Assembly: GCA_963977015.1 (NCBI GenBank)
Contig: CAXBMO010000009.1
Coordinates: 181,270 to 245,269 of the forward strand
Length of the DNA: 64,000 nt
Direction of reading: 5' to 3'
DNA from: an uncultured bacterium
Lineage (GTDB): Bacteria > Verrucomicrobiota > Verrucomicrobiia > Verrucomicrobiales > DEV007
In this document: positions 15,785 through 34,833 of the stretch, one piece after another
Position numbering within the stretch: the first letter of the stretch is position 1
Layout of the letters: each line of letters starts with the position of its first letter
Notes under the pieces: generated by a model
Seen by the model: the letters and a program-made list of their open reading frames with translations, nothing else
Told to the model about the DNA's origin: nothing
Databases searched by the model: none
Made by a program: the position numbers and the translations under genes

Positions 15785-16564
15785 TCATACAACCCGAAAG
15801 ACAACGACGGTTATATTGTCCTGCCGGTCTTTCCGGCGCGATTCCACTGTCTGGATCAGTTGCTTACAGACAACGGATGCATCCGATGCTTCATGAATCT
15901 CAATCGTTGCCCGCAGTTTCTCCAAAGGAAGCGTATCCAAGCCATCGGTAGCCACAATGATCATGTCACCTTTCTCCACTTCTACCGGAGGTTTGCCCTG
16001 ATCAAGAGCGCCTTCCGTCAACGGCTCACCAATGATCGCTGATCGGAGGACATTTCGATCCGGGTGATTCTCAGCATCCTCAGCCGTCATTTCACCCCGC
16101 TCAACCTGGGCTGCCAAAATTGGCGCCATCGAATGGTCATCGTTGAGCCTTTTGAATTGCTTGGAAGCTCTGCTGAAATGATAGAGGGTGGAATCTCCGA
16201 TGCTCGTCCAACGCAGCATGTTGTCCCTCAAGAATGCCGCAACCAGCGTGGTGCCCATGCCCGAGTAGGTTTGGGGCTCTTCTTCGCACAACTTGCGAAT
16301 CGCCTCGTTGGCACCTCGCAAGCCCTTTGATAGTCTCACCGTATCGACGTCGAGCGACTCAGAAAATTCGCGAAGGAAATTTTCCGTTGCCACTCGACTT
16401 GCAATATCTCCGGCCGCATGTCCGCCCATCCCATCCGCGACGACGACGAGTAGGTCTCCGCCCCGAACTCCGAGCGCATCTTCAATTGCAACCTGATAGT
16501 AGTCTTCCTGATAGGGACGATCACCTTGAGATTGCCTTCCAGCAATATCCCGTTCAGGCTCCAT
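15785..16564 (-). CDS. Soluble PP2C/PPM-family Ser/Thr phosphatase
   Basis: GDRPYQED, VADGMGG, GMGTT, GDS, DHS, ATDG, QDNIT. Confidence 0.93.
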   Translation of the reverse strand: MEPERDIAGRQSQGDRPYQEDYYQVAIEDALGVRGGDLLVVVADGMGGHAAGDIASRVATENFLREFSESLDVDTVRLSKGLRGANEAIRKLCEEEPQTYSGMGTTLVAAFLRDNMLRWTSIGDSTLYHFSRASKQFKRLNDDHSMAPILAAQVERGEMTAEDAENHPDRNVLRSAIIGEPLTEGALDQGKPPVEVEKGDMIIVATDGLDTLPLEKLRATIEIHEASDASVVCKQLIQTVESRRKDRQDNITVVVFRVV

Positions 16565-17250
16565 TAGACGAGGGTATTGTCACTCCAGTCAAATTGTTCG
16601 CCACACAGAGGAACAAACTTGAGGGTGGTCCCTCCAATTCGAATCAATTCTCCGCCAGCAAGCTCAACAGGAGTCAAAACCGGGCTTTGCTCGGCGCCCA
16701 GGTAGGTGAGGTTGCTGCCTTGGGTGTTCGGTTGAACGAAATATTTTCGACTGCGCGGATCATAGGTAATAATCGCGTGGGCACTTCGCGAAACTTCCTG
16801 ATCACCAAACGGCAACGGAACGCGGTTGTCAGGATTACGACCGATTTGATTCATGCCATAACCCAAAGTCAAGGCGCTGCCACGGCCTGGTCCCGCAACA
16901 ATGACAACCCAGCCAACAACCGGGTCTTCGATTTCACCGGGAGCTTGGGGATTGCCCTGTGCAACGCCGCCTGCAGGAGCAATTCCTGGTGCGGGCTCGA
17001 TACCACCTGCCGCCACAGGCCTAACCAAACGCGTCTTGTCGCTGTCAGCTCCAGAATTCGATCCCGGCCCACCCTGCGAAGCAGGCTGATTGATCACTGA
17101 GGTGTTGTCATCCTGGATGCCTGAGCGCTCAACAATTCGGGTTGCTTCCGGATCATCGCTACTGGTTCTCCTGATCTCCTGGCTCTGTTCTTGATAGTCC
17201 GCATCGCTTGGGCGTCTACGAATAATTCGAGTCGTGTCATCGTTGCTCAT
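16564..17250 (-). CDS. FHA domain protein with disordered Thr-motif N-terminus
   Basis: VVGWVVIVAGPGRG, IGR, VSRSAHA, SNLTY; N-terminal repeats DTTRII, EATRIV, DNTSVI, DKTRLV. Confidence 0.87.
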   Translation of the reverse strand: MSNDDTTRIIRRRPSDADYQEQSQEIRRTSSDDPEATRIVERSGIQDDNTSVINQPASQGGPGSNSGADSDKTRLVRPVAAGGIEPAPGIAPAGGVAQGNPQAPGEIEDPVVGWVVIVAGPGRGSALTLGYGMNQIGRNPDNRVPLPFGDQEVSRSAHAIITYDPRSRKYFVQPNTQGSNLTYLGAEQSPVLTPVELAGGELIRIGGTTLKFVPLCGEQFDWSDNTLV

Positions 17251-20000: not shown

Positions 20001-20207
20001 AGCATGATTAAACTGGGCAGCCCTTCTGGTTGGGATTTCGAACGATCATAACCTTTTGTCAGGAAGGACCCCAACGTTAACACAGCTAAAATCGGCTTGT
20101 TGAAATCCAAACTCCGGTGAGCCGAACCTTGGTAAATGTTGGTAACGAATGGCTGTATTCCGGTCAAGTCCAATTCGATTTGTTTTTCCCGCATCTGAAC
20201 CCGGCAT

Positions 20208-21194
20208 TTAGTTTCCTAAAGAACTAAGCCCAACAAATTGTCCTCCATTGCGATCAGCAAGCTTGAAAAGGAAGGATACGAACTCCGCATCCTCGGTATA
20301 ATCCCCAACCGCCACCGTGTGGATTTCCTTCCTCCCAGCATTTTGACTGGTGATTTGGCTCAAAATTTCGTCGTGGGTCGCATCATTGGGATTTCCATCA
20401 GTGAACAGAATGACCGCCTCCGCCGAGCTGTTAAGCGCCTTTTTGAGCGCGGTCAGGGTTGGGGTTTGCCCCCGGAACTCCGAGGTCCACTTGCGGACCG
20501 TCGCCTTGGCTTCCGAAATCCCGCTGCTGTTCATCGTCCGCAAGGTTGGAAACGGTTCCGGCCAAACGTGAAAAATGGGTGTGGTCGCCTCGGTACTGTC
20601 CGTATGAAACCCCAGCATCGACATCTGATAACCGGAATCCATGGGATCGACCATTTGCGCCACGGCCTGTTCGGTAATCGTTTTGTATTCTTTCATACTT
20701 CCCGACATATCCACCACAAAAATGAGCTTTTTGGCTTGGGTCACAATTCCGAGAAAAGCCAACCGGTGGGCCTCTTCCAACTCTCGTTCCAAGGATCTGG
20801 CGCGTTCTTCGGCATTGCGACGAGCGACTTCCAGGTCTTTTACCTGCCGATTCGCCTTTTTCTTGGCTTCTTCCAAACTCGCGACGGCACTGCGGGCCTC
20901 CGCCTGGGCTTGATTGGCCTTCTGCCGCATCGCCTCTGCCTCATCGGCGTTCACCCGAGCCATTTTTTCGGCTTCGATTCGTGCTTCAACGGCCTTTCTG
21001 GAAGCGCTTTCCGCTTGCGCCCGCAGTTGCTCCAAAAGAAAGACGTTTCGTTGAGCCTCCTCAAAATCCCGCGAGGTCTTCTGGTAATACTGCGTCAGAA
21101 TGATCATCAGCAGCATGAACGCCCCCATCGCACACGCAAAAAGGTCAACCATGGACAGACTGAACGTCTCAATCGTGCGGCTGCGTTTTCTCAT
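20208..21194 (-). CDS. Membrane-anchored vWA protein with MotB/ExbD-like N-terminal TM and coiled coil
   Basis: Basic N-terminus, FSLSMVDLFACAMGAFMLLMIIL (Asp at TM start), ~100 aa coiled coil, full MIDAS VVDMSGS...T...LFTDG. Confidence 0.82.
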   Translation of the reverse strand: MRKRSRTIETFSLSMVDLFACAMGAFMLLMIILTQYYQKTSRDFEEAQRNVFLLEQLRAQAESASRKAVEARIEAEKMARVNADEAEAMRQKANQAQAEARSAVASLEEAKKKANRQVKDLEVARRNAEERARSLERELEEAHRLAFLGIVTQAKKLIFVVDMSGSMKEYKTITEQAVAQMVDPMDSGYQMSMLGFHTDSTEATTPIFHVWPEPFPTLRTMNSSGISEAKATVRKWTSEFRGQTPTLTALKKALNSSAEAVILFTDGNPNDATHDEILSQITSQNAGRKEIHTVAVGDYTEDAEFVSFLFKLADRNGGQFVGLSSLGN

Positions 21195-21552
21195 GTCCTG
21201 CCATTTTGCATAAGTTCGATCTGGGAAAAACTGTTCTAATCGATCAGATCGTCAACCTCAAGTATCAATCTGACAAGGCCCCGCCAAAAGCCTTCGCCCA
21301 ATACCGGAATCACACTTTTTTCGCATTCGGAGCAAACAGTTCCGACCGGAATTCGAAATGCATCCAGTCGAAGTGATCCCAAGGAAGGTAAAAGCGTAAC
21401 TTCGCATTTCCCGACATCGAAAGTTCAACGGAAGCGGGCGGTAGGAGGCTCCAATTCGATTGCCTCGTAAGATTAGGCTTGCCGACGAAAGCGCTCACGG
21501 TTTAAAAACGATCGTAGGCTATATTGATAATCAAACGGCAGGATTCCAAGTG

Positions 21553-23292
21553 ATGGACGCGATACAGGAGCGACGACCATTGAAACCGCGGTCTCGATTG
21601 GGTGACTACCGAATCGACCAAGTCCTTCAACAGGGAGGTCTCGTCGTGTCCTATCTCGCTCACGATCTGCAGTTGAAGAAACCGGTGGTGGTCGAGGAAT
21701 TGGTTCCGCAGGGCCTGGCTGGTCGCTCCTCGGGCGAGGCGGTGTTGCCATCGAATGGTGAATGCCCGGTTACGTTCGCCCAGGCGAAAGAGGCGTTTAT
21801 CGCGGAAACGAAATTGGTCGCCGGAATCACTCATCCCAATGTGATTCACGTCCTGCGCTTGTTTGAGGCAAACAACACGGCCTATCGCGTTGTCGAGCAC
21901 GTGCGGGGGCCGAATTTGGAGACGTTTCTGAGCCTTGCCGAAAAGCCCATTCCGGCTCACACGCTACGCAGACTCCTGAGCCAGATTCTGGCCGGACTCG
22001 AACGCATCCATCAACGCGGGTTTGCTCACCTCGGCATCTCACCGGTCACGATCATGGTGGCGGAGGATACGAAGCGGCCCGTCTTGGCGGAATTCGGGAT
22101 CGCCCGCGCCAAGTTGCGAAACTCCGGTTGGACGAACTCCGAAATCGCGGGCGACTGCCTTGCTCCCGAGCTTTCACCTTCCGTGCCCGATGAAGCGGGC
22201 CCGCACTCCGACATCTATGCTTTCGCCAAAACGATCCATCGGGCCTTGATCGAAAGTTCTCCGGAACGCGATCAAATATCCGGAGCGGAGGGACTGAGTG
22301 GTGACTCGATCCTGATCAACCGCTATGGCCTTGCGTTTTTGAGGGAACTCGAGCGGGGATCCAGTCAAAATCCCGCAACTCGGCCACAGAGTGCTTCCGA
22401 ATGGTCAGAGTTGCCTGAACTGCTTTCTCCTCATGAAGCAGATCCCAAACCGGCGCAAATCCTGACACGGAGAAAAAAGGGGGGAAGTTGGCGAATTGGA
22501 AACGGGTTTTGGAAGCTTCTTCACCAGGACGGTGAGTCCGCCCCCGTTGAATCCAAGGCGATTCAAAGCACTCCAGCAATTATCGAACCGCCTCCCGCCA
22601 TTGATCCTGACCCCGTTGTCGCCCCCCCTGAAGTTTTGCCAGCCGAGCCGCCACCAGTTTCCAAGCCCCTGGTGGCGGATGTCCCAATTATTGAGCCCCC
22701 TTCCGCAGTAGACGAAGTTCTGGAAATACCGGTCCCCCTACCGGTTTCGGTCCCGGACCACCAAGTACCGGCCATACCAGAGGATCCCGTGGAAGCCATT
22801 CACGAAAACGAAATCCCTTCCCCTGCCGCGAATTCCTCCCCCACTCCAGAATCTCCTCCAGAATCTCCTCCAGAATCTCCTCCAGAATCTCCTCCAGATT
22901 CCGTGCCATTGCCGCTCGTTGCCCCGCTACCTCCTCCGGCTCCCGTTGAGGAGATCCCGCAAAAACCTGCCCAACCAACCGTCACCTCGCTGGAGATCAT
23001 CGCCGGTCCCGGGCAGGGCAATTCTCTTCCTCTCGGCACAGGCCTCAATCGGATCGGTTCCAGCGGCGAAAACGAGATTCCGCTTCAGTTCGGCGATGCA
23101 CAGGTTGCCCAGATTGCCCACGCCTTCATCCTGCGCGACCCGAAGCGACAAGCCTTCTTCCTGCAACCCAACGTGTCCGGCGCAGCACTCCTTTATCTGG
23201 GGGAAGACGAGTCGCTCGTTTTGGCTCCTGTCGAATTGCGCGGCGGCGAGCTGATTCGCATTGGGAACACCAAGCTGAGGTTCATGGCCTAG
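21553..23292 (+). CDS. Pseudokinase - Pro-rich linker - degenerate FHA protein
   Basis: Kinase fold with VVVEE, HLGISPVT, AEFG replacing VAIKE, HRDIKPxN, DFG; C-terminal FHA paralogous to 16564-17250. ATG 21553 preferred to TTG 21460. Confidence 0.8.
   Translation: MDAIQERRPLKPRSRLGDYRIDQVLQQGGLVVSYLAHDLQLKKPVVVEELVPQGLAGRSSGEAVLPSNGECPVTFAQAKEAFIAETKLVAGITHPNVIHVLRLFEANNTAYRVVEHVRGPNLETFLSLAEKPIPAHTLRRLLSQILAGLERIHQRGFAHLGISPVTIMVAEDTKRPVLAEFGIARAKLRNSGWTNSEIAGDCLAPELSPSVPDEAGPHSDIYAFAKTIHRALIESSPERDQISGAEGLSGDSILINRYGLAFLRELERGSSQNPATRPQSASEWSELPELLSPHEADPKPAQILTRRKKGGSWRIGNGFWKLLHQDGESAPVESKAIQSTPAIIEPPPAIDPDPVVAPPEVLPAEPPPVSKPLVADVPIIEPPSAVDEVLEIPVPLPVSVPDHQVPAIPEDPVEAIHENEIPSPAANSSPTPESPPESPPESPPESPPDSVPLPLVAPLPPPAPVEEIPQKPAQPTVTSLEIIAGPGQGNSLPLGTGLNRIGSSGENEIPLQFGDAQVAQIAHAFILRDPKRQAFFLQPNVSGAALLYLGEDESLVLAPVELRGGELIRIGNTKLRFMA
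22846..22899 (+). repeat. 12-bp in-frame tandem repeat (PESP x4)
   Basis: Four perfect CCAGAATCTCCT copies plus a partial copy. Confidence 0.95.
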
Positions 23293-23322
23293 CCCTGCTC
23301 TCAACCCCTCATCCATGCTTCG

Positions 23323-26300
23323 ATGATCAAGTTAAAAGTTTTTGTCAGTTCTCCCGGCGATGTGGCCCGCGAACGGGAAATCGCCCGGCGCGTCATGGCG
23401 AGGGTCGAGAATCGATTCGCCGGACAAGTTGAGATTGAACCCTATCTTTGGGAACACGAACCGCTCCAGTCTTCGGCGGATTTTCAGGGCAACATTCCCC
23501 CAACCTCCTCATTCGATCTCGTCATTTGCATCCTTTGGACGAGGCTGGGAACTCGTCTCGGACCGCAATATCAAACGACGGAAGGGAGGCGCTTCAACTC
23601 CGGAACCGAGTTTGAGGTGTTGACCACCATTGAAGCTCAAGATCAACCGCCACAGGGGCTTCCCATTCTCAGCATCTTTTTGAACAAGACGGATTGGAAG
23701 GTGCCGACCCAAGATCTTAGTGCCGCGCAAAGTCAATTGGCTCAACTCCAAAAGCTCCGCGACTTTTTGGCTCAATTGTTTTTTGAGCAGGATGAAGAAG
23801 ATGAGTCGGTGACCCTGAACAAACGCGCGTTCAATCAATACCATTCCCTCGATCAATTTGAGGATCTCTTGAACAAACAGATCGTTCAGCTGATCGAGAA
23901 GAAGCTCCGTGACCGACCCGAAGGCGGACTGGCCCCGCCCGAAAAGCGGAAGGCCAGTTGGAAGGGAAATCCCTATCGCGGCCTGGAGGTCTTCGAATTC
24001 AAACACGCCGCCATTCTTTATGGGAGAACCCGGGCAACCGAGTCCGTTCTCAATGCCCTGAAGTCCAGATGGGACGCTGGTTGCGGCTTCACCCTGATTT
24101 TGGGAGCCAGCGGAACCGGAAAAAGCAGCCTCGTTCGCGCCGGGGTGTTGCCTCTCCTCATTCAACCCGGCGTCGTCGAAAAGGTCGGGCTTTGGCGGCG
24201 TGCCTCGATCATGCCCGGCCGGTCTTCCGGCGATGCGATGGATGCCTTGTCAGCCGCCCTCCTCTCCCCCGAAGCCCTGCCCAACCTCGCCCCCATCGAA
24301 GATTCCGAGCGCGTTCACCAATTGGCCGCCGAACTGCGAACCATGCCGGAGTTTGTCGCCGATAGAATCCGAGACGAACTTCGTCAGGCCGGGCACACCT
24401 GGTTGGTGGAAGAAAAAGTGAAGCTGAACGAGAAAGCCAGCCAACTGAGCCGGGAAGGGCGGAGTCAGGACGCGGCGACACTGGAAGCGCAAATCCAGGG
24501 GATGGCCGCCCCGGAAACCCGGTTGGTCATTTTGGTCGATCAGTTTGAGGAACTCTTTACCTCGACCATTTCCGAAGAAGCCAGAATCGAGTTTGTGCGG
24601 GTCATCGACTGTTTCGCGAGAATGGGAGAGACGGCGGTGATTGCAACGATGCGTTCGGATTTCTATGCGTCCTACCAGCGCTATCCCTTGCTGATCAACC
24701 TTGCCGGTGAAACGGGGAGAGTCGATCTCACCCCGCCTCAACCCATTGAAATCGGGGAAATGATCCGAGGTCCCGCGGAAGCCGCCGGTTTACAGTTTGA
24801 GATCGATGCGGAAACCAATCAATCGCTCGACGAAGCCTTGCGTGACGCCGCCATGGAAAGCCCCGAAGGTCTTCCCTTGTTGGAGCACGTTCTCAAGTTG
24901 CTGTTCCAGCTTCAAGCAGAACGTCAGGACGGCTGGCTTCGGTGGGAAGACTATCGAAAGCTGGGTGAGTTTTCGGGCGCTCTATCCCAACATGCTGATC
25001 AGGTTCTGGGCCAGTTGAAGAGCAGTTCCCTGGAAGTCCTGGACGATGTGCTCGAAAGCCTGATCACGGTTGGAGTCAGCGAAGAGAGCAAGCCGGTGCG
25101 ACGAATTGCCAGATACGACCTGGTCGCAACCCATCCGGCCGTTTCCAATTTGATCGAAGCGTTCGTGGATGCCCGACTTTTTACAACCGGCAAGGATGAA
25201 CAGGGCCGGGCGACGGTTTCCGTGGCTCACGAAGCCCTGCTTCGCGTCTGGCCACGAATCACCGAGTGGATTGAGGAGAACCGCGATTTCCTGCAAATGC
25301 GAGCCCGGCTCGAAACCGCTCGAAAAGCGTGGGAAGCCGCCAAAGAACACCCGGACTTTCTCCTGGATCACGGCCGCCCTCTCGCTGAGGCGGAAGAGCT
25401 TCAAAGCCGATATGGAAGCGCCTTGGCCGAGCGAGACCGCACCTTTATCCGCCTCTCCAGCGCCGCGGTCCACCGCGTGGAAAACCGGAATCGCCGCATT
25501 CGCCGAACCGTCCTCTCCGGAATTTCCACGCTCGCCCTGATCGCAATCGGCTTTGCCATCTTTGCCAATCGCATGCAGGCGAAGGCGGTCGAAGAACGGC
25601 AGGCCACCGAAGCGGCAAACCTGGCAATCTTGAAAGGCAACGCGAGATCTGCAAAACAATCGCACAAATTGGCGGAGGCCGCGCTTTGGGACGTCGCCTT
25701 GATTGAGGCGAAACAACGCCTGGGGCAACCCAACCGGCTGGATCAGCTTCGCCTGCTCGCCTTGGAACCGGAATTAGATTTCTTTCGCTGGCGCTTGCCG
25801 AGCAATGGCAGAGTCCGGCAAATCGTTCCACGTTCTTCGGGCGAATCCGTCTTTCTCAATCTCGGTTCCCGGGATCTGCTTCACGCGACACGAAACGAAG
25901 ATGGAGATTGGAACCTTGAAGCATTGAACGCGATCCGCGAGCCGGTCTTCACCATCGCCCCATCGCCCGGAGACGAAGGCATTCTGTTCGTCATCACCAG
26001 ACAAAAACTCATCGCCATGAACGTGAATTCCATGACGCAGCTTTGGGAGTTTGCGGCGGACGAAGGTGAGTTTTCGCCTGCCCTGTCGGTGACCGAAAAC
26101 GTTTGGGTTTGGCTGGGCAATCAGCTTCTCGGGATTGATCCCTCCAAAGGAACCGTCAAGGTCTCCATGCAGACCGGCCTTTCCTCCGCGTCGACCATTG
26201 ACGCCGCCGTGATCGACGCCGCGCAAGGGAAAGTCTTCGCGATTGTGGACAAAAACCATCAAATGGCCTGGTCCCTCGCATCCGGAGATCTCCTGTTCGA

Positions 26301-28659
26301 AGACGACTACTCGGGTTGGTATGCAGGCAGCCTCGCCAGCCACGACAATGGCATCGCGCTCCTTTCCCACCAACGAGGTAACGATGAGTTGATCTTGCGC
26401 AATTTCACCGGCCTCAGCGATCCGATTCGAATTGCCATGCACTGGGACGCCATGTCGGTCTTCCAAGCTCGTGAAAAAGGCGTCCAGATCGTTTGCCGGG
26501 ACGGCGCCATCAGGGCTTGGGATTGGAACGGCAACTTCCTCAACACCCAACGAATTGCCGATGCGAATGGAACCAGCGCGACCGCAAAAGTCGGAGACAC
26601 AACCTGGGTAGCCGGGGACAACCTGTCGATCTACCAATCGCTCGACACGCCACCGGTGTTCACGCAATCCTGGTGGAGGGACGTCCGGCACATCCAGGCA
26701 CTCAACCAAGACCGGTTCCTGTTGCAGACCCGTCGCGGCCTCGAGATTCGGTCGATGGAAGACGGGAACTTGCTCTCCTCCCGTCTGATTTCGGCAGATG
26801 ACGTCTTGGTCGAAGAGGAAGCCGGGCTGGTCTTTCTGCGTCGCCCGGGAGTTCTGGAGGTTTACGAATGGAGTGAGCTTTTTGATTCCGAAATTTCAAA
26901 TCCGGCCCCATCAGCTCGCGTCTACGGAGTCGACCAAGGCCCCATGGCTTTTGATGGTTCGCGGCAACAAATCGCGGTTCCCTATAACGACGGGTTTCAC
27001 ATGTTTGATGCCCCAACTCTGAAGCGCAGCCAGCGGATTTTAAACTCGAGTCCTGCCGCCGCCGCATTCGAGCCGAACACTCAAGATCTTTGGCTGGCTA
27101 ACCTCGATACAGCAAGAGGTCGTATGGAAATCTTCGTCCATCGTGATTCCGGGAATCAGGGCATGCTCTATCATCCGGTTCATCCCGAATCAATCAACAC
27201 GTCGAGCTTTCAGTTCTCCGACAGGAGGTGGCTTCTGCTGGGCCACAAAGATGGCTCGGCGGAAGGGCTCGATCTGACACTTCGATCCAGCCACGAACGA
27301 TCCCTCGTCATTCCCGAACCGGCTGTGAAACCCATTTCACCTTCCGGATACAAACCCGTCGCCTCCATTCACGTGCTTCCAAACCAGGAATTTCTCCTTT
27401 CCAGAAGCACCAACGCGTTGGCCATTTTCCGTCCCGACAAGGAAGGGAAATACGCCGAGAAACGAACATTCTCACCCTTTACAAAACCTCCCAACCAAGT
27501 GGTCCCCCTTCCCAACCAAACGGTACTGATCGAGTCGGGAGGGGAATTGGCACTCTTTCAACTCGGCAACTCCATGCGGCTGTCGCGTTTTGATGACGAT
27601 GTGGGGAAACAATCGACAGGCTCCCACGCATTCTGCACGCCTAACGGAGTTGTTCACCCCAAAGACCGCACCGTGGTGATCGTCGGGGAATCCGGGACAT
27701 CACAGACTCTCGTTCCCGAGAAAACGTCTTCCGAAAGTTTCGAGGAAGTGTTTGTCGGCCCGGGAGAGGATCTGGTTCTCGCGCTCGATTGGGAGGCCGT
27801 CGTCGCTTGGACACTGGACAAGGAGAATGCTGGCAAAACGTTCTTTGACGCGGGCATTGAACCTTCAGCATCCCGAATCCTGGCGTTGCCCGCCGCCCAA
27901 CCGGGCACCCTGACGTTTACGGGCCGGAGAAGTTTTGCCGTCGCGGTTCGATCCGAAATTTGGGAAATCGAAGTGCCTGAAGATGGAACTTCCAAACTCA
28001 AAACCTCGCGAACCTGGAGGCCGCAACTTGGCTCCGACACTCGAATTACTTCGATGGCGAAATCCGGCGAGACCTTCGCGGTCGTGGATCGAACCCAGGA
28101 TCGCCCTTTTCTCTACGGAATCACCGGCCATCCTCATCAACCGGACATTGCTCAGATCGCGTTGCCTGGAATCCCACGGTCTCTTCGATCTCTGAATCAA
28201 CAGGGAGTGATCGCGGTTGGTTCGGAAGATGAGATTTTCGTCGTCGATGTGGCCGGGAACAGGCTGTTGCGCCGCATTGAGCTTCCGAAATCCGGGCAAT
28301 CGGAAATCCGCCCGATCGAAGACATGTCTCCCGTTCCCGGATCGAACGTCGTCCTGATTGGGCGCGAACAACGGATCAGCGCAGTGGATTGGGAAAGCGG
28401 CGAATTTATCACCGACTTCCCGGTGCATGAGTTTGTCTCCTCCATCCACGTCGATCCGGATCGACAACAGGCCCGGTGGTTGGGAAGCAAATGTCACGGA
28501 ATCATTTATTTGCCGAACTTCACGGCCAAGGCCCCCACCGCCGAAGAATTGGAACAAAAACTGGGGCTGCAGCTGAGGAACGGACAGATCCATCAAACCA
28601 AACCACCGCTGCGATTGCGCAGGGTGACGCCTCCACTCTTAAACGCTTCTCATCCATGA
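23323..28659 (+). CDS. DUF4062/TIR-like N-terminal domain - STAND (nSTAND1-type) NTPase - TM - beta-propeller-like repeats
   Basis: VFVSSPGDV...DLVICILW..LGT...SGTEFE; NPYRGL; Walker A GASGTGKSS; Walker B LVDQFEELF; MRSDF; LPLL; VAHEALLRVWP; TM VLSGISTLALIAIGFAIFA; ~900 aa beta-rich tail. Confidence 0.85.
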   Translation: MIKLKVFVSSPGDVAREREIARRVMARVENRFAGQVEIEPYLWEHEPLQSSADFQGNIPPTSSFDLVICILWTRLGTRLGPQYQTTEGRRFNSGTEFEVLTTIEAQDQPPQGLPILSIFLNKTDWKVPTQDLSAAQSQLAQLQKLRDFLAQLFFEQDEEDESVTLNKRAFNQYHSLDQFEDLLNKQIVQLIEKKLRDRPEGGLAPPEKRKASWKGNPYRGLEVFEFKHAAILYGRTRATESVLNALKSRWDAGCGFTLILGASGTGKSSLVRAGVLPLLIQPGVVEKVGLWRRASIMPGRSSGDAMDALSAALLSPEALPNLAPIEDSERVHQLAAELRTMPEFVADRIRDELRQAGHTWLVEEKVKLNEKASQLSREGRSQDAATLEAQIQGMAAPETRLVILVDQFEELFTSTISEEARIEFVRVIDCFARMGETAVIATMRSDFYASYQRYPLLINLAGETGRVDLTPPQPIEIGEMIRGPAEAAGLQFEIDAETNQSLDEALRDAAMESPEGLPLLEHVLKLLFQLQAERQDGWLRWEDYRKLGEFSGALSQHADQVLGQLKSSSLEVLDDVLESLITVGVSEESKPVRRIARYDLVATHPAVSNLIEAFVDARLFTTGKDEQGRATVSVAHEALLRVWPRITEWIEENRDFLQMRARLETARKAWEAAKEHPDFLLDHGRPLAEAEELQSRYGSALAERDRTFIRLSSAAVHRVENRNRRIRRTVLSGISTLALIAIGFAIFANRMQAKAVEERQATEAANLAILKGNARSAKQSHKLAEAALWDVALIEAKQRLGQPNRLDQLRLLALEPELDFFRWRLPSNGRVRQIVPRSSGESVFLNLGSRDLLHATRNEDGDWNLEALNAIREPVFTIAPSPGDEGILFVITRQKLIAMNVNSMTQLWEFAADEGEFSPALSVTENVWVWLGNQLLGIDPSKGTVKVSMQTGLSSASTIDAAVIDAAQGKVFAIVDKNHQMAWSLASGDLLFEDDYSGWYAGSLASHDNGIALLSHQRGNDELILRNFTGLSDPIRIAMHWDAMSVFQAREKGVQIVCRDGAIRAWDWNGNFLNTQRIADANGTSATAKVGDTTWVAGDNLSIYQSLDTPPVFTQSWWRDVRHIQALNQDRFLLQTRRGLEIRSMEDGNLLSSRLISADDVLVEEEAGLVFLRRPGVLEVYEWSELFDSEISNPAPSARVYGVDQGPMAFDGSRQQIAVPYNDGFHMFDAPTLKRSQRILNSSPAAAAFEPNTQDLWLANLDTARGRMEIFVHRDSGNQGMLYHPVHPESINTSSFQFSDRRWLLLGHKDGSAEGLDLTLRSSHERSLVIPEPAVKPISPSGYKPVASIHVLPNQEFLLSRSTNALAIFRPDKEGKYAEKRTFSPFTKPPNQVVPLPNQTVLIESGGELALFQLGNSMRLSRFDDDVGKQSTGSHAFCTPNGVVHPKDRTVVIVGESGTSQTLVPEKTSSESFEEVFVGPGEDLVLALDWEAVVAWTLDKENAGKTFFDAGIEPSASRILALPAAQPGTLTFTGRRSFAVAVRSEIWEIEVPEDGTSKLKTSRTWRPQLGSDTRITSMAKSGETFAVVDRTQDRPFLYGITGHPHQPDIAQIALPGIPRSLRSLNQQGVIAVGSEDEIFVVDVAGNRLLRRIELPKSGQSEIRPIEDMSPVPGSNVVLIGREQRISAVDWESGEFITDFPVHEFVSSIHVDPDRQQARWLGSKCHGIIYLPNFTAKAPTAEELEQKLGLQLRNGQIHQTKPPLRLRRVTPPLLNASHP

Positions 28660-31600
28660 AGAAGATACTCCTGACCTGGTTCACATTGCTCTGGTTGGTT
28701 GCCCTGCCAACTGCGTTGGGGAAACCCAACGTCCTCGTCGATTTTCCATCCTACGAAGAACCGGTTTCTCGCCCGGAAATCCTCCTTGGCCATCAAATCC
28801 GTGAAGCGCTCGTTCTCGCCTTGAAACAAAGCGGTCATCCCGTTGCCGTTGATGCACTGCTGGCGCCACCAACCACTGATTTCGACTTCCGACTTCCCAA
28901 CGCGCTTCCTTTTGAACTTCCGGCCGAGTTGCATCCCGAGGTTCGCTTTCGCATCGAGCATCTCAGTTCCAGCAACATCCGCATTGCGATCCGGTCCAAG
29001 GACTCGGAGCAATTCACTTCTTTTCTTGAATTCGCCGCTGGGGAAAAAGCTGTCTGGCCCAAAATCCAGAAGCAGGTCTACACATGGGCAGGAACCGATC
29101 CCCCCGATCAATCACCCGCCCTGCCGCCCGAACCCAACGCAGAAGCCCCTCGCTCTCCGTATCCCAATGATTCCGCCTGGCTCGATTCCGGGTTCACCGA
29201 CAGGCTCGCGACCTACAATGCCCTGGCTTCTCAACTCCACAGCCCCACATCGAATGCCAGGGAATATCCGCTCGCAGGTCTGGCCCGTCTGTCAGCCCTG
29301 CATGCGGCTTACTATAGCAGGATTGACGAGGTATCTGCATTTCGTTACGCAGCCCGGTCGCTGGTCTTTCTCGAAATGCTTGAGCAACAGGCATCGGCCC
29401 CTCCGGAAGTTCGCCATTTGATAGAGAACATCCGCTTTCTTGCCGAGCGCTTCACTCTGAGATCCTGGTTGCCGACACCAAAGACCGTCGTTCTGCCGGA
29501 ATTACAGCTCCTGATCAATCACGAGCGCAATCAAAATCTCACGATCCATCCCGGAGCAGAATCTCTCTTTGCATTGTTGGTTTCTTGCGAAGCTTATTCA
29601 CCGATCCGTGGCTATGATTCGGCCATCAGCAAAGCCCTCGATTTTGAAGGCTTTTTCGCCGCGCTTGATCAACGCGTGGAATCGGAAAAAACCCCAGCCT
29701 ATTCGGGGTTGATCGAAAACGGAGAACGATACTTGGAGCACGCCCTCGTCTTGGCCCGGCACACCGACTACACCTTCGATTCGGTCATGATGGTGGATCG
29801 CTATGTTTACGCTCTCTTTCAATTGAACCAGGAAGCCACTCCCACCGGTCAAGAGTTGGGAGTGCTGGCAAAACTTGATGGTTTCGAAGCGGTTGAAGGC
29901 CTCACAACAGAAGTCATCTCGTGGATCAATACGGCGGAGCAGCACTTTGACTGGCTTGATACGGAGGGCGCAGCCATTCCCAAAGACGACCTCACCGCCC
30001 ACACTCTCCCATACCTCAAAATCCTGGGGATATTGTACTGGCTGGACAACGAGATCCCCGACAAACCAGAGTTGTGTTATTCAAGCTCATGGAAACTCAA
30101 CTGGTATGACATCCGCCAAGAGTTCGTGAACCGTCACGCTTCTCTTGCCGTGTCCGCCTACGAGCGTTTCCAAGACCTTGGCGTCTCCCAAGCGAGTGCC
30201 ATGAAGCGGCAACTGAACCGCTTTGGAAACGAAAAGTTGAATCGCCCGAGCCGATTTCTCGCGCCGATTCAGATTACCCCGACCACGGTCGTATCCTGGC
30301 AATGGCTGTGCGAAGACTTGCAGACGCTTTGCGCTCAAGTGCGGTGTACTCCAGCGACCGGGATCCTGACAAAGTGTCCCACAATTCGCGACAGCATCGC
30401 CTCCGGCTCCCTATCAGAAGACCAACGTGTCATGTTCATCGACGCATTGCAGGAGTCGATTCAAGACCCTGAATTGGTTCAGCAAAGCAACTTTCTCGGC
30501 TGGATTGATGAATCTCTGATTCGAGAGATCCGCGAATTGATTCGCGAAGGGGATCCCGAAGCCGTGCCTCACATCAACGCATTCGTGCTCGGCATCATTT
30601 TTGACGGAGTCTTCGCGTTTCCTGATTCGTACGACAATTCTCCACTTCTATCCATCGCCGGTCGTCAAGCGAGTCGATGGGTCCGGCAGGCCAAGTACCT
30701 GGACAATCGCGGTCAGACCGACAAAGCGGCGACGATGGCGGAGAAAGCCTTCACATTGACTGACCAAAACAGCCTTTTCGGGAGCGACTATGTCATGATT
30801 CTTGGCAGAACCGGCCGACTTCACGAAGCCCTGGCCCAAATGGCAATCCTGGCGGCAGACGACTTCGCCCACGATTATCACCGACGCCGAGTTCTCAAAT
30901 GGCTCCCCCATTGCGGCGCCCTCAATTGCCCACAAGGTCTGGAAGTCAACCTGGCGGAGTATCTCGGAGAAAACACCACCGCGTCTTCCATGGATTATCT
31001 TGCTCGCGCAGAATATGCGTTTCGACTGGGCGAATGGGAAGTGATGAAACAAGTGGTCGACGACTTTCACTACGCAGGCTCTGCGCGCAGGGAGGTTTTG
31101 GATGCCATCGCCACAACGATGTTGAGCCGCCGGGACAACCCGGATTGGTCCCACATCGAATCCGCTCTTCGATCGGAGCTGGCAGCTTACGGCGGCAGCA
31201 TCCTGGAGTCCTATGATTTCTGGTTGGCCATCCTCGACCGCGAATTCGGCGACGCACCTGAGTGGGACGGCATCAAGCAACGAACCCGGTTTGAGGACAT
31301 TGCTCAACTGCATCACCACTCGAAACAGCTCTGGCTTCCGCTCAAAGAGGACGAAGCTGCCAAGATTCTGAACTGGTATCAGAAGACGACCGAAGCCTTT
31401 CTTGAGGAAGACGGCCCCTGGCAAACCGGTGTCGATGACTGGAAACTCAAAGCGGTGCTCGACGAACATCGTGCCCTTGGAAAATGGATCGCCCTGCAAA
31501 CGGACCGATTTCGGACTTCGCCCGCCCCGTCAGTCATCGAAACGGCAGCCACCGTTGTCCGGAAAACCAATGAAACCCGGGAGTTGCGGGCAAAACTCCA

Positions 31601-32132
31601 ACCTCGCGAACCGGTCGCCATGAATTTCATGGTGTGGTTGCTTCGCGAAGGTTGCCCACCGGAAAAGGTGGCGGAGTTTGCTGAGAACCTTGTCTCCAGT
31701 GGCGCGAATCCCTGTCACGGCGAGTCCATTCTTTGTGAGGCGGTTCGAGATTCCGAAGCGTTGTCCCTCATTTTGTCCTGGCCCAAGGAAGCCCTGCCGC
31801 GGAGGGCTGACGATCCCCAGAAATTCGCGATCGACCTCGAAGGGCTCTTTCAATGGGCTTTCGTCAACGGACGCGACACGATCGCCGAAGACGCAGCTCG
31901 GAAGTTGGCCGTGGAATCGTCCGATTTCAGGGCCCTCCAGCTCTTCTTTTCAGATCAGGACCAGGCGGCAGTCTGGATTCACAGCAACGCTCCGAGCCGC
32001 AAGTTGCTTGCCGTCTGGAAGCAGCAATTGAATTCCGAAAACCCGCACGAACGCCTCCGCAAGGAGCGAACGGCAGCCAGTCATCCAGCGCCCAAAATTC
32101 CGCGACCGCTCTGCGCTACCACGGTTGAATAG
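28656..32132 (+). CDS. Large exported hypothetical protein, helical (possibly TPR-like)
   Basis: Signal peptide MKKILLTWFTLLWLVALPTALG from ATG 28656, which overlaps the STAND gene stop (ATGA); long ORF with no recognised catalytic motif. Confidence 0.7.
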   Translation: MKKILLTWFTLLWLVALPTALGKPNVLVDFPSYEEPVSRPEILLGHQIREALVLALKQSGHPVAVDALLAPPTTDFDFRLPNALPFELPAELHPEVRFRIEHLSSSNIRIAIRSKDSEQFTSFLEFAAGEKAVWPKIQKQVYTWAGTDPPDQSPALPPEPNAEAPRSPYPNDSAWLDSGFTDRLATYNALASQLHSPTSNAREYPLAGLARLSALHAAYYSRIDEVSAFRYAARSLVFLEMLEQQASAPPEVRHLIENIRFLAERFTLRSWLPTPKTVVLPELQLLINHERNQNLTIHPGAESLFALLVSCEAYSPIRGYDSAISKALDFEGFFAALDQRVESEKTPAYSGLIENGERYLEHALVLARHTDYTFDSVMMVDRYVYALFQLNQEATPTGQELGVLAKLDGFEAVEGLTTEVISWINTAEQHFDWLDTEGAAIPKDDLTAHTLPYLKILGILYWLDNEIPDKPELCYSSSWKLNWYDIRQEFVNRHASLAVSAYERFQDLGVSQASAMKRQLNRFGNEKLNRPSRFLAPIQITPTTVVSWQWLCEDLQTLCAQVRCTPATGILTKCPTIRDSIASGSLSEDQRVMFIDALQESIQDPELVQQSNFLGWIDESLIREIRELIREGDPEAVPHINAFVLGIIFDGVFAFPDSYDNSPLLSIAGRQASRWVRQAKYLDNRGQTDKAATMAEKAFTLTDQNSLFGSDYVMILGRTGRLHEALAQMAILAADDFAHDYHRRRVLKWLPHCGALNCPQGLEVNLAEYLGENTTASSMDYLARAEYAFRLGEWEVMKQVVDDFHYAGSARREVLDAIATTMLSRRDNPDWSHIESALRSELAAYGGSILESYDFWLAILDREFGDAPEWDGIKQRTRFEDIAQLHHHSKQLWLPLKEDEAAKILNWYQKTTEAFLEEDGPWQTGVDDWKLKAVLDEHRALGKWIALQTDRFRTSPAPSVIETAATVVRKTNETRELRAKLQPREPVAMNFMVWLLREGCPPEKVAEFAENLVSSGANPCHGESILCEAVRDSEALSLILSWPKEALPRRADDPQKFAIDLEGLFQWAFVNGRDTIAEDAARKLAVESSDFRALQLFFSDQDQAAVWIHSNAPSRKLLAVWKQQLNSENPHERLRKERTAASHPAPKIPRPLCATTVE

Positions 32133-32145
32133 CGACTCTCCCGTT

Positions 32146-34833
32146 CTATCCCAACCAACCTGAGCGAAATGCCAGGACCGCAAGAGTGGCGAGGAGGGTA
32201 ATCACCAGGAGGGTGATGAGGATGGAGACGATCTTGAGTCCCGAACGCGGTGGCGTTGCTTGCGGCGGGAGGCTGCAGGCCGCTGGAGGAAGCCTGAATT
32301 CCTGCGTCTGGTCCAGATCGGCGGAGGGACGCGAAGTGGCAGCCGGCGCGGGCATGGGAGGGGCAGGTGGTGGGGAAACACTCCGGCGAACTGGGGGCTC
32401 CTCTTCCATCGAATTATCGCCCGGTTCAAATTGTAGGTTTCCGCCAAGGTCATGAATATCAAAGTCCTTTCCGGAAATGATCTCCTTTACCGTTCCATCC
32501 TCGGCCTCGGTAGTTTCCGAAGGTTCGAAGCTCGGTTCCGGCCCTTCTAACTTCTCCTCATTGGTCGATGCTTTGGGTTCCGGACGCCCAATGAGCCGCG
32601 TCGCCTCCTCTTCATCGCCTCCCCCACCGTAGACGGGAGCCGGTTCATCGTCTTCCTCGCTGCGCTCAATGATTCGCGTCTGCGATGGGATCTCACGGTT
32701 GACGGACGCGGAGTAGTCGGCCAGCGGATTGCTTGCGAGCTTGAGCGCTTGAAAGTGAATTGAAGACAACTCTCGCGGGGCCACCGGCATCGGCATTTCC
32801 CAGTAGGTTGGCCGGATGAAATTCTGCCGCCGTAGCGAAAGTGCGTGCCGATATTCCTGCATCACCACGTCTGATTGGCGGGAATTCGATGACCAAAAGA
32901 GCTGAAACACGTCTGCTTCCTCAATCAGGTTCATCAATTGCGGGTGCCAGGCCTCGCCCGCGCGCAGTTCCAGCAAATCCCGGAGGTAGCGATCGCCCAA
33001 CGTTTTGCCGTAGTTCTCGATCTGCTCGACAATGGCCAAATCCTGCCGGGAATAGGATGGAAAAATCCGCCGATAGAGCGCCGCCGAATCGGAAACCTGC
33101 TCGACTTCCGAAGGCAGGGAAACTCCGGCCGGGGTAATCTGAAAACGGAGGGGAACTTCCGCGACCATCAGACTGCCCAAATAAATGGAGAGACTGCCCG
33201 CCGCTTCCGTTGCGCCGCTGCCGATGGGGCGAAGCTGAAACTCTTCTTTGTGGACGTTGACGCCCCGGACCCAGAAAAAGGAGCGCGAGGGCGGATTGAA
33301 ACGGACTCCCGGCACGTGGGGCACCAGCCGAATCTCCGCTTCACGCGGAATCGCCAGGCTACTGTCCTTGGTGGTGTCGAGGTATTGGCTGATCTTTTCT
33401 CCCAAAACATCCCCCGCCTGCGCCCTCACCTCCTCAACCGGGTGCGCGGCGTTGGCCGGAGCGTCGATCGGCTTATCATCCAGGTGCGTGAACACCAGCA
33501 TCTGGCTCCACACATCCGCCGGGAGACTCTTGGGCCGATAGGTGGTGAACTGCACGTTCTCCGGCGGATATAACCCTTCCTCGCCGGCCACCTCCTCCAG
33601 AATTTCGCCGTCTTCACCGTCGTCAAACAGGCCGTCCGTCACTTCAATAGCCGGCTTGGCTGCGACCGGCTCCTTCGCCCACTCCTCAGGTTCGACGGGT
33701 TGCGCAACCGGAGGCACCACGGCCTCCTTTTTCTTCTCCAACTCCGGTTCAGGCTCCGGGACAGGTGCAGGCACGGGAAACGATGGCAATGGCGCCGGGG
33801 GTGCGACCGGCATCGGCACTGGCGCACCAGCGTCCTGCGAAGCCACCTCATGTGGAGGCTGGGAAGTCCCATCAAGCTCGTCTGTATCCTCCGTTTCTAC
33901 CGCCGGAGCCTCGACCACCGGTGGTGCGGGACGCTTTCCCAACAGTTTCCTCAACTCGTCAACGGACGCGGGCCGATCTTCCGCATCGACGGCAAAAGCC
34001 CGATCGATGGCCCCGAGCATCTCCGCCCCAAAGCGATCCACCAGCTCCTCATTCCCGGCCAACGCGGGCGATTTCTCCGGACTGGTCAACCGGGTTGGCG
34101 CGGGAGTTGGACGCTGCCGCGACACGACGTGATAAAACAACGCCCCCAGGGAATAAAGGTCGCTGGAAGGCCCCTCCACCACATCGGTCATGAACCGATC
34201 GATCGGCAAGTAAGGCGAAATGAGCCGTTCGCCATCATCATTCTTTTCGTAAGCGGCCTTGGCGGCGCCAAACTCAATGATCTTGGGCTCCTTCTTGGGT
34301 CCAGAAAGAACGACGTTATCCGGGGCAAGGTTCAGATGCAGCGCGCCTTTCTCGTGCAGGTATTCCACCCCATTCAGGACGCCGCTGATCAGGTCATACA
34401 ACTCCGCCGCACTCAACCAGTCCTCCTCACTCTCGCGCCTGCGGATCTCTTCACTCAGGGACCGGCCCACCACATACTGCAACACACAATACGCCGTCCC
34501 ATTCGCCTCAAAAACATCGAAGACTCGCACCAGTCGCGGATGGTCAAACTCCAGCCACTGCTTTGCCTCGCCCACAAAATCCTTCAACGTCGTTGCAAAA
34601 AGGTCGGCATACAGCGGGTTGCCCTCAAACGTCAGCACCTGCTGACTGGATGCCTCGCGATACGCCAAATCTTCAGGAAGCAGCTCCTTCACCACCACCT
34701 CACGCATCCGCACCGTATCCCAGGCCAGGTAGGTGTAGCCAAGGATTCCCGTCCCGAGGCGTTCACGAATCTTGTATTGTCCCAGACTCGTTGCCGGTGC
34801 CAACGGAGTCGCTTTTTGAGGCGGTGCTTCCAT
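32146..34833 (-). CDS. Pseudokinase - unknown beta domain - TIR domain - C-terminal TM protein
   Basis: Kinase fold with HLNLAPDN and IEFG; TIR-like IFPSYSRQD...LRAGEAW...IEEADVFQLFWSSNSRQSDVVMQE (~32750-33075); terminal TM IVSILITLLVITLLATLAVLAF. Confidence 0.83.
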   Translation of the reverse strand: MEAPPQKATPLAPATSLGQYKIRERLGTGILGYTYLAWDTVRMREVVVKELLPEDLAYREASSQQVLTFEGNPLYADLFATTLKDFVGEAKQWLEFDHPRLVRVFDVFEANGTAYCVLQYVVGRSLSEEIRRRESEEDWLSAAELYDLISGVLNGVEYLHEKGALHLNLAPDNVVLSGPKKEPKIIEFGAAKAAYEKNDDGERLISPYLPIDRFMTDVVEGPSSDLYSLGALFYHVVSRQRPTPAPTRLTSPEKSPALAGNEELVDRFGAEMLGAIDRAFAVDAEDRPASVDELRKLLGKRPAPPVVEAPAVETEDTDELDGTSQPPHEVASQDAGAPVPMPVAPPAPLPSFPVPAPVPEPEPELEKKKEAVVPPVAQPVEPEEWAKEPVAAKPAIEVTDGLFDDGEDGEILEEVAGEEGLYPPENVQFTTYRPKSLPADVWSQMLVFTHLDDKPIDAPANAAHPVEEVRAQAGDVLGEKISQYLDTTKDSSLAIPREAEIRLVPHVPGVRFNPPSRSFFWVRGVNVHKEEFQLRPIGSGATEAAGSLSIYLGSLMVAEVPLRFQITPAGVSLPSEVEQVSDSAALYRRIFPSYSRQDLAIVEQIENYGKTLGDRYLRDLLELRAGEAWHPQLMNLIEEADVFQLFWSSNSRQSDVVMQEYRHALSLRRQNFIRPTYWEMPMPVAPRELSSIHFQALKLASNPLADYSASVNREIPSQTRIIERSEEDDEPAPVYGGGGDEEEATRLIGRPEPKASTNEEKLEGPEPSFEPSETTEAEDGTVKEIISGKDFDIHDLGGNLQFEPGDNSMEEEPPVRRSVSPPPAPPMPAPAATSRPSADLDQTQEFRLPPAACSLPPQATPPRSGLKIVSILITLLVITLLATLAVLAFRSGWLG

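Follow-up and report, generated by a model that had tools for sequence, protein, structure and literature searches.

The window analyzed here is a 64,000-nucleotide stretch of contig CAXBMO010000009.1 (assembly GCA_963977015.1, positions 181,270 to 245,269) from an uncultured Verrucomicrobiales bacterium, and it encodes a 579-residue protein in which a kinase fold and an FHA fold, both predicted to be inactive, are joined in a single chain. The gene, referred to below as the target, is the first of a three-gene operon whose second member is a STAND NTPase with a TIR-like head. It has lost its catalytic and phosphothreonine (pThr)-binding residues, evolves under purifying selection, heads the same operon in a second species, and encodes no predicted transmembrane segment. 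The explanation that we favor, with a probability of about one half, is that the target protein is soluble and acts without catalysis, as an adaptor or regulator by which the STAND receptor would be coupled to the membrane kinase/FHA/PP2C network encoded by the signaling island around it.

Membership of the kinase fold is clear. The Pfam Pkinase model (PF00069) matches the target with an E value of 2.1e-17 and 63.9 bits (cut-off 31.7), and the closest solved structure to the kinase part is the kinase domain of PpkA (PDB 5hnv, E 1.8e-33), which aligns with residues 14-289. The evidence is anchored by homology and does not reflect a chance pattern. In the 5hnv alignment, GEGGFGIVY is replaced by QQGGLVVSY, AIK by VVE, HRDISLDN by HLGISPVT, and DFG by EFG, and the resulting set (QQGGLV, VVVEE, HLGISPVT, EFG) is not that of an active Hanks-type Ser/Thr kinase. 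The family alignment used for the kinase positions contains 62 sequences, with conserved positions defined as those shared by at least 90% of rows; these are G26, G28, F30, G31, K48, D161, N166, and D180, and since the target's residues there are Q, G, L, V, E, G, T, and E, respectively, seven of the eight are changed. The αC Glu and APE-type motifs of the C-lobe are retained. Pkinase and PK_Tyr_Ser-Thr are the only Pfam families found in residues 1-330 at E values up to 10, and a match to the EssB/YukC family is absent. Searches with PADLOC and NCBIfam gave generic kinase matches only, all far under their cut-offs, and the ESM Atlas's own model of the target is of low confidence (pTM 0.52, pLDDT 0.64), its nearest models being kinases with TM values of 0.45-0.50. 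From its residues, the kinase domain is predicted to be catalytically dead. It has been considered whether the domain retains a non-canonical enzymatic or nucleotide-binding activity, as some eukaryotic pseudokinases do. The retained αC Glu and overall fold signature would be compatible with this, and some bacterial pseudokinases that lack the Lys still bind ligands according to the bacterial kinase atlas (10.1101/2025.01.12.632604). Against such an activity, seven of the eight near-invariant ATP-binding and catalytic positions have changed together, and the replacements in the Gly loop, at Asn166, and at Asp180 differ between the target and its ortholog, so that no alternative active site is conserved. 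Residual activity is very unlikely on these grounds.

The C-terminal FHA tail is more diverged from its family models. On its own it scores 14.2 bits with the Pfam FHA model PF00498 (E 0.06), below the cut-off of 20.7, and does better with the phospho-independent Yop-YscD_cpl model (E 3e-4); a profile built from four FHA tails found no PDB sequence at E ≤ 0.01. The fold of the tail is assigned through a paralog encoded at 16564-17250. BLASTP aligns the last ~130 residues of the target with the product of this gene at 63 of 130 identical positions (48%, E 2e-35), and the paralog itself passes the Pfam FHA model (E 1.2e-6, 29.2 bits) and aligns with solved FHA domains, namely ArnA (5a8i, E 0.004) and the GarA-type 2kkl/2kfu. 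According to these alignments, pThr is contacted in the paralog by the GR Arg, the SRSAH Ser, and the GSN Asn. At the corresponding sites the target has GS, AQIAH, and GAAL, and its ortholog has GT, AAEAH, and GTAL, with the His present in both. The tail is predicted to be phosphate-blind, having lost the residues by which pThr would be bound. A second case of this kind lies in the FHA-FHA-ABC transporter (13295-15709, minus strand), where an alignment of eight FHA domains of the island shows that the second FHA domain also lacks the Arg of GR (GS) and the Ser of SRxH (VHPNH). The disordered N-terminal part of the 16564-17250 product (residues 1-80) contains three T-R-[IL]-[IV] motifs, TTRIIRR, ATRIVER, and KTRLVRP, which could be phospho-acceptor or FHA-ligand sites; in the fusion protein, the dead kinase stands in place of this N-terminal part.

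A sequence-only reading of the locus had already listed the loss of the Gly loop, the ATP-binding Lys, the HRD Asp, and the DFG Asp, the close FHA paralogy with altered pThr residues, the intact open reading frame (ORF), and the 30-bp gap to the STAND gene. All of these are borne out, with every motif that it quoted found where it had been placed, and the 5hnv and 62-row alignments add the catalytic-loop Asn to the residues lost. The frame is open from a TTG at 21460 to the stop at 23292, and translation probably begins with the ATG at 21553, since the ortholog opens with the same MDA... residues and the in-frame sequence upstream shows no relation between the two genomes. Neither a signal peptide nor a transmembrane segment is predicted. 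A conserved basic/aromatic motif, KKGGSWRIGNGFWKLL, occupies the place that the transmembrane segment takes in the island's other kinases, and as KKGGSWRIGNGFWKLLHQ in the target it may form a membrane-surface helix or serve as a docking motif. The proline-rich linker that follows contains a tandem repeat, within which (22844-22898) short contigs of sequencing runs X1 and X4 start or stop. No Rfam match was found in 20000-24000, the number of promoter and terminator sites in 21100-23500 was no higher than in shuffled sequence, and no conserved block was found between the intergenic regions of the window's genome and of G126, the genome that holds the ortholog.

The gene is rare. A search of 1.84 billion representative proteins returned 176,235 matches at E ≤ 0.001, and the sole match that spans residues 1-579 in one stretch is P0026 (623 residues, 48% identity, E 1.7e-116), whose gene lies at G126:C21:140229-142088 in a second species of the genus. 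When 134 genomes of the family were searched, G126 alone gave a full-length match, and any match at E ≤ 1e-20 was seen in 5 of the 134; a word-index homolog search with the whole protein found kinase-domain relatives only, none full-length. The ortholog keeps the Lys-to-Glu change (VVIEE) and the HRD-to-HLG change (HLGIGPDH) and has non-catalytic residues of its own elsewhere, with AIGKFKISY in the Gly loop and GFG in place of DFG, while its FHA tail is degenerate in a separate way (GT, AAEAH, GTA). The shared Glu and HLG, together with the degenerate tail, indicate that the dead state is older than the split of the two species. Between these species the proportion of differing synonymous sites (pS) is saturated at ~0.75, for which reason no dN/dS ratio can be computed; the corresponding proportion for non-synonymous sites (pN) is lowest in the FHA part (0.283), followed by the kinase part (0.356) and the linker (0.509), and the kinase and FHA domains are both clearly constrained.

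At shallower divergence, a near-identical strain in run X1 differs from the window over codons 1-271 at 13 positions, 11 of them synonymous and 2 non-synonymous (H136P and R140K), giving a pN/pS of 0.061 (binomial P 1.2e-5) from one X1 contig with a depth of about 7. All pieces from runs X2-X4 are identical to the window, as are the other pieces from X1. Over 21400-22364 the X1 contig has 14 differing sites (1.5%), and the X1 pieces at 22466-22621 and 22869-23428 match the window exactly, a pattern that suggests a mosaic or a mixture of strains. The sequence-only reading had called the gene retained, had proposed dN/dS in orthologs as the check, and had named frameshifts or neutral decay as what would speak against it. 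Its view of retention holds in that the single ortholog is intact, with a frame open over 623 codons, and selection at the strain level is purifying. A decaying relic without function would be expected to be rare and to evolve faster than its neighbors, both of which apply here. Such decay is extremely improbable, however, given that the frame has stayed intact over 579 and 623 codons in two species between which synonymous change has reached saturation, and given the excess of synonymous changes in the near-identical strain.

The operon offers a candidate partner. The ATG of the STAND gene, at 23323, lies 30 bp downstream of the target's stop, and its product matches nSTAND1 (PF20703) with an E value of 4e-87 and 293.8 bits, the P-loop GASGTGKSS and Walker B DQFEE being invariant in the alignment. 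The sequence RNRRIRR stands just before the single transmembrane segment at residues 730-748, and the C-terminal ~1030 residues behind it are predicted to be extracytoplasmic. Searches with the last 998 residues gave neither a Pfam family (E ≤ 10) nor a PDB sequence (E ≤ 1); relatives with WD40 repeats allow the guess that a β-propeller is present. The N-terminal head (residues 1-205) was modeled with AlphaFold2 at a pLDDT of 84.6, and the best structural matches of the model are TIR domains, led by MAL TIR (Z 10.5, root-mean-square deviation 3.0 over 135 aligned residues). These are followed by RPS4, TIR-STING, and TIR-SAVED with Z scores of 9.7-9.8 and by nucleoside deoxyribosyltransferases with a Z score of 9.3. 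Foldseek returned weak flavodoxin/TIR matches only (TM 0.3-0.42), and the Pfam DUF4062 model gave a weak score of 13.3 bits (cut-off 24.7, E 0.099). The Atlas clusters nearest to the head are DUF4062 clusters (score 0.91), although the family is assigned to just 14% of their members. Two preprints describe DUF4062 as an NADase of TIR-like type whose catalytic Glu lies at positions 97-108 and which also forms the head of an Avs STAND protein (10.64898/2026.05.01.722283, 10.64898/2026.09.04.749371), and Glu98 of the present head is shared by all 30 relatives in the alignment. The Evangelion DUF4062 preprint makes no mention of kinase, STAND, FHA, or transmembrane features. It is plausible that the head belongs to the DUF4062/TIR-like NADase family, and it may be an NAD-cleaving effector.

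In G126 the same three genes occur in the same order, and there the stop of the dead kinase overlaps the STAND start as ATGA. An ATGA overlap between the second and third genes is present in both genomes; downstream of the operon, G126 differs from the window. Four genomes of the genus were compared. Two carry the target together with the STAND ortholog, which in G126 is 69% identical over residues 2-720, and two have neither, the latter (92% and 59% complete) holding only STAND paralogs of at most 41% identity. The sequence-only reading had tied the target to its STAND neighbor, and this tie has gained in context, through the conserved gene order, the ATGA overlap, the joint presence in two of four genomes, and fusions elsewhere. 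It is from this context that a functional link of the target to the STAND gene may be proposed.

The fusions are found among more distant members of the STAND family. The module made up of head and nSTAND1 has 3042 relatives at E ≤ 1e-20 among 7999 scored, the nearest being labeled Verrucomicrobia. Ten of these relatives were scanned with Pfam, and Pkinase was found at residues ~70-320, before the module, in all eight picked with a listed kinase and in neither of the two picked without. A contig scan of genomes yielded 572 confirmed STAND relatives, the best 80 loci of which were analyzed. A kinase-like domain lies within the same ORF in 22 of these 80 loci by script, and in L084 by inspection, and the HRD Asp is replaced (HGR/HGA) in 5 of the kinase-fused loci. 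The loci L057, L061, L090, L092, and L095 encode nSTAND1 proteins of actinobacterial metagenome-assembled genomes with a fused kinase carrying HGR/HGA, for which only the C-lobe was aligned. Judging from these architectures, members of this STAND family repeatedly carry a cytoplasmic kinase-fold domain, whether live or dead.

The other candidate partners are encoded by the signaling island at ~2170-37436, which contains four live and two dead kinases, two PP2C phosphatases, two trypsin-TM-FHA proteins (TM, transmembrane), the FHA-FHA-ABC transporter, VWA and VWA-TM-FHA proteins, a MotA/ExbB-like protein, and two small FHA proteins. No MoxR-type family was found among the island ORFs scanned for Pfam families. 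All five other kinases of the island have a transmembrane segment after the kinase domain, and four of them retain every motif. That the target has no such segment fits a mobile cytoplasmic adaptor. Within its own genome the kinase part of the target is closest to these five kinases (28-33% identity), and the tail is closest to the 16564-17250 product. A FastTree phylogeny built from 131 kinase domains groups the target with its ortholog (support 100) and has the kinase-TIR protein at 32146-34833 as their nearest branch (SH-like support 91); this placement is unsure because both branches are long.

Degenerate domains are common in the wider kinase family. The survey covered 98 proteins with 133 kinase domains (92 top matches and 6 kinases of the window), a biased sample, since a query that is itself dead draws in others of its kind. 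More than one kinase domain is present in 27 of the 98 proteins, and 21 of these 27 contain at least one degenerate domain. Five of the 71 single-domain proteins are degenerate, and only the target and its ortholog combine the loss of Lys, HRD Asp, and DFG Asp. Tandem kinase-pseudokinase proteins (P0027-P0067), in which the number of kinase domains ranges from two to four, are frequent among PpkA-like bacterial kinases. The domain arrangements suggest that dead domains of this family normally stand beside other kinase domains and may work with a live kinase. The target may then be a regulator of the kinase network that has nothing to do with STAND, in which the dead kinase activates or blocks a live membrane kinase, by a dominant-negative or allosteric effect, and the place in the operon is incidental. 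In addition to the prevalence of tandem dead domains, its nearest relatives are the island's own kinases, and a divergently oriented VWA/FHA/PP2C/kinase cluster adjoins the target in both genomes. An incidental place in the operon is harder to reconcile with the ATGA overlap with the STAND start in G126 and with a three-gene order that has been kept while other parts of the island were rearranged, and a role apart from STAND is rather unlikely.

How an adaptor between the STAND protein and the island might have arisen and might work can be sketched as follows. A PpkA-like Ser/Thr kinase of the membrane and a small FHA adaptor, both functional components of the island, would have been duplicated, and the copies fused through a long, flexible, proline-rich linker, each losing its chemistry and keeping its fold. 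The product would be made together with the membrane-spanning STAND NTPase, with its cytoplasmic TIR-like head and outward C-terminal part, and with a secreted protein. One dead domain may dock on the cytoplasmic head or NTPase part of the STAND protein, and the other may pair with one of the live kinases or with proteins of the island that bind FHA domains. Neither phosphotransfer nor recognition of pThr would be needed for the switch to be held, or to be linked to the kinase/PP2C network, in this way. Beyond sequence, selection, and gene order we infer every step, including any contact between the proteins, whether it would serve as a brake or an activator, and the proposed NADase activity of the STAND protein's head.

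Several observations weigh against such an adaptor. The gene is found in two genomes only, and synteny and co-occurrence rest on these two related genomes. It evolves faster than its live counterparts, with 43-48% identity to the G126 ortholog compared with 66% for the kinase at 12011-13273, 72% for the FHA paralog, 74% for PP2C, and 57% for STAND, which fits either a bait under diversifying pressure or plain weaker constraint. The upstream neighbors of the STAND relatives are also unlike the target: the nearest upstream ORF was scanned with Pfam where it lies on the same strand (33 of 59 such ORFs, the other 26 being on the opposite strand), and none of the 33 is an FHA protein and one is a kinase piece (L089, probably a split fusion), the rest being heterogeneous. 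A home-made FHA profile likewise found no FHA domain in the best 80 loci. From this near-absence of upstream FHA and kinase genes, the pairing is no general rule of the STAND family. Lastly, the kinases fused to STAND relatives are of another subfamily, with 24% identity to the target and no PpkA-type insert, and the argument from fusions therefore holds at the level of the fold only. A separate gene for a dead kinase joined to FHA is, from its distribution, best seen as a lineage-specific invention.

The fast evolution of the target also fits the alternative suggested in the sequence-only reading, that it is a guarded bait. Here the target would mimic a kinase and an FHA protein of the island, an invader's factor directed at these would modify or bind the mimic, and the STAND protein would sense this and fire its TIR-like head. 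The target does copy two real components of the island with their chemistry removed, its sequence has changed more quickly than those of the authentic kinase and FHA genes, and its co-operonic STAND protein has a head resembling the TIR/DUF4062 NADase effectors (10.64898/2026.05.01.722283, 10.64898/2026.09.04.749371). The plant pairs of a pseudokinase or tandem kinase with an NLR provide precedent. However, the part of the STAND protein in the position of a sensor is predicted to be extracytoplasmic and adjoins a gene for a secreted partner, which points to a signal from outside, while the target is predicted to be cytoplasmic; selection at shallow divergence is, moreover, strongly purifying and not diversifying. 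A bait of this kind is doubtful, and the fully developed version, a bacterial guard-and-decoy pair in which a membrane NLR-like STAND protein watches a disarmed replica of a kinase and FHA protein and destroys NAD+ on contact with an effector, is slightly more so.

The adaptor that we favor has relatives in function among known systems. The PpkA-type Hanks kinases (5hnv) share with the target an insert between β3 and helix C, and the island holds the same toolkit of PP2C, FHA, and VWA proteins as PpkA-type pathways. PpkA and Fha are tied to type VI secretion (PMC3953482), whereas the target lacks the catalytic residues and the transmembrane segment, and the type VI sheath gene VipB/TssC (PF05943), the sole marker searched, was not found in the window's genome (95.26% complete). 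In type VIIb secretion, the pseudokinase YukC/EssB binds FHA domains of EssC/YukB that lack the pThr residues, independently of phosphorylation, and the two together serve as an assembly interface (PMC9600267, PMC11217815). The combination of a dead kinase fold with a phosphate-blind FHA domain is the same as in the target, but it is there divided between two membrane proteins of a secretion machine and here found in one soluble chain beside a STAND gene. EsrG1 belongs to the Esr epibiont-sensing system of Actinomycetales and is the output of a threat-sensing pathway of surface propeller, vWA, kinase, and phosphatase (PMC13622651). It resembles the target in having a dead enzyme domain, a long disordered linker, and an FHA domain at the C-terminus. 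It differs in that the dead enzyme is a phosphatase, the linker is phosphorylated, the FHA domain is treated as a pThr reader, and the associated ATPase is MoxR, in place of the pseudokinase, STAND protein, and destroyed FHA pocket found here. The likeness to EsrG, as far as the sequences tell, is one of function and not of membership.

Kinase folds have also been described in conflict systems. Most kinase domains of vWA-MoxR conflict systems are catalytically disrupted (PMC7159879), and nSTAND1 proteins with N-terminal kinase or FHA domains have been described (PMC8195603). The kinase-nSTAND1 fusions, and the inactive kinase domains of NTP-dependent conflict systems, described by Kaur et al. 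(2020, 2021) are among the closest known parallels. The target differs in being a separate polypeptide of another kinase subfamily, joined to a degenerate FHA domain and known from two genomes only. Together, YukC/EssB, EsrG1, the disrupted vWA-MoxR kinases, and the kinase or FHA heads of nSTAND1 proteins support dead domains as binding modules. By analogy, ZAR1 with RKS1/ZED1 and the tandem-kinase and NLR pairs of wheat place a dead kinase with a switch of the STAND/NLR class, although these pairs are not homologous to the present one, in which the region in the sensor position of the STAND protein is predicted to lie outside the membrane. Within the literature searches made, no account was found of a gene next to a STAND gene in which a pseudokinase is joined to a degenerate FHA domain. 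Bacterial pseudokinases and phosphate-blind FHA domains are each already known.

Table 1. Coordinates of the target gene, its parts, and nearby genes in the window
Feature	Position	Strand	Description
Target, whole ORF	21553..23292	+	579 residues: pseudokinase, linker, degenerate FHA
Kinase part, residues 1-300	21553..22452	+	PpkA-like Hanks kinase fold; Gly loop absent; Lys48 to Glu, Asp161 to Gly, Asn166 to Thr, Asp180 to Glu
Basic/aromatic motif KKGGSWRIGNGFWKLLHQ, residues 307-324	22471..22524	+	Ortholog counterpart KKGGSWKIGRGVWKLF; position of the transmembrane helix of paralogous kinases
Linker, residues 327-470	22531..22962	+	144 residues, 44 of them Pro; lowest conservation of all parts (33% identity, pN 0.509)
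Tandem repeat in linker	22844..22898	+	Perfect 12-bp repeat, 4.6 copies, in frame; codes ESPP repeats
FHA tail, residues 471-579 and stop	22963..23292	+	FHA fold; pThr contacts GR to GS, SR to AQ, SN to AA; His retained; 60% identity to ortholog tail
STAND gene (operon gene 2)	23323..28659	+	1778 residues: TIR-like/DUF4062-like head 1-~205; nSTAND1 217-677; transmembrane 730-748; ~1030 residues without family
Operon gene 3	28656..32132	+	~1158 residues; signal-peptide-like N-terminus; ATG overlaps STAND stop (ATGA); no family match
VWA gene	20208..21194	-	Divergent from the operon; same layout in G126
Canonical FHA paralog	16564..17250	-	228 residues; putative source of the dead FHA tail; FHA domain 87% identical between the two genomes
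Kinase-TIR, second pseudokinase	32146..34833	-	895 residues; HLNLAPDN, EFG, Lys kept; TIR_2 E 1.2e-9; C-terminal transmembrane segment

Among the surrounding genes, those at 4770-6230, 10578-12002, 18540-20000, and 9298-10581 encode two trypsin-TM-FHA proteins, one VWA-TM-FHA protein, and one PP2C with a transmembrane segment, and the island proteins are consistent with a shared design in which an outer domain is paired with a cytoplasmic phospho-signaling domain. A planctomycete-type PSD/PSCyt protein is also encoded in the window. The kinase-TIR protein has no ortholog at the matching place in G126, and its best homolog, P0296 (35% identity), is degenerate too (HGN, EMA). This second pseudokinase, the commonness of dead domains in the kinase family, and the TIR-like/DUF4062-like head of the STAND protein do not appear in the sequence-only reading.

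Few bacterial pseudokinases or phosphate-blind FHA domains have a defined partner. The target unites both in a selectively maintained gene at the head of a STAND operon, whose main product resembles an NLR-type receptor of the membrane, and it provides a concrete case for how non-catalytic copies of signaling domains may be recruited to control an immune-type switch. Two recurring themes are added by the survey around it, the tandem kinase-pseudokinase proteins of the PpkA-like family and the kinase or pseudokinase domains fused to nSTAND1. The locus also offers a place to ask whether a logic of decoy and guard exists in bacteria. If the target and its STAND neighbor were indeed such a pair, which we consider doubtful, it would mean that the pseudokinase-decoy logic of plant immunity has evolved in bacteria too.

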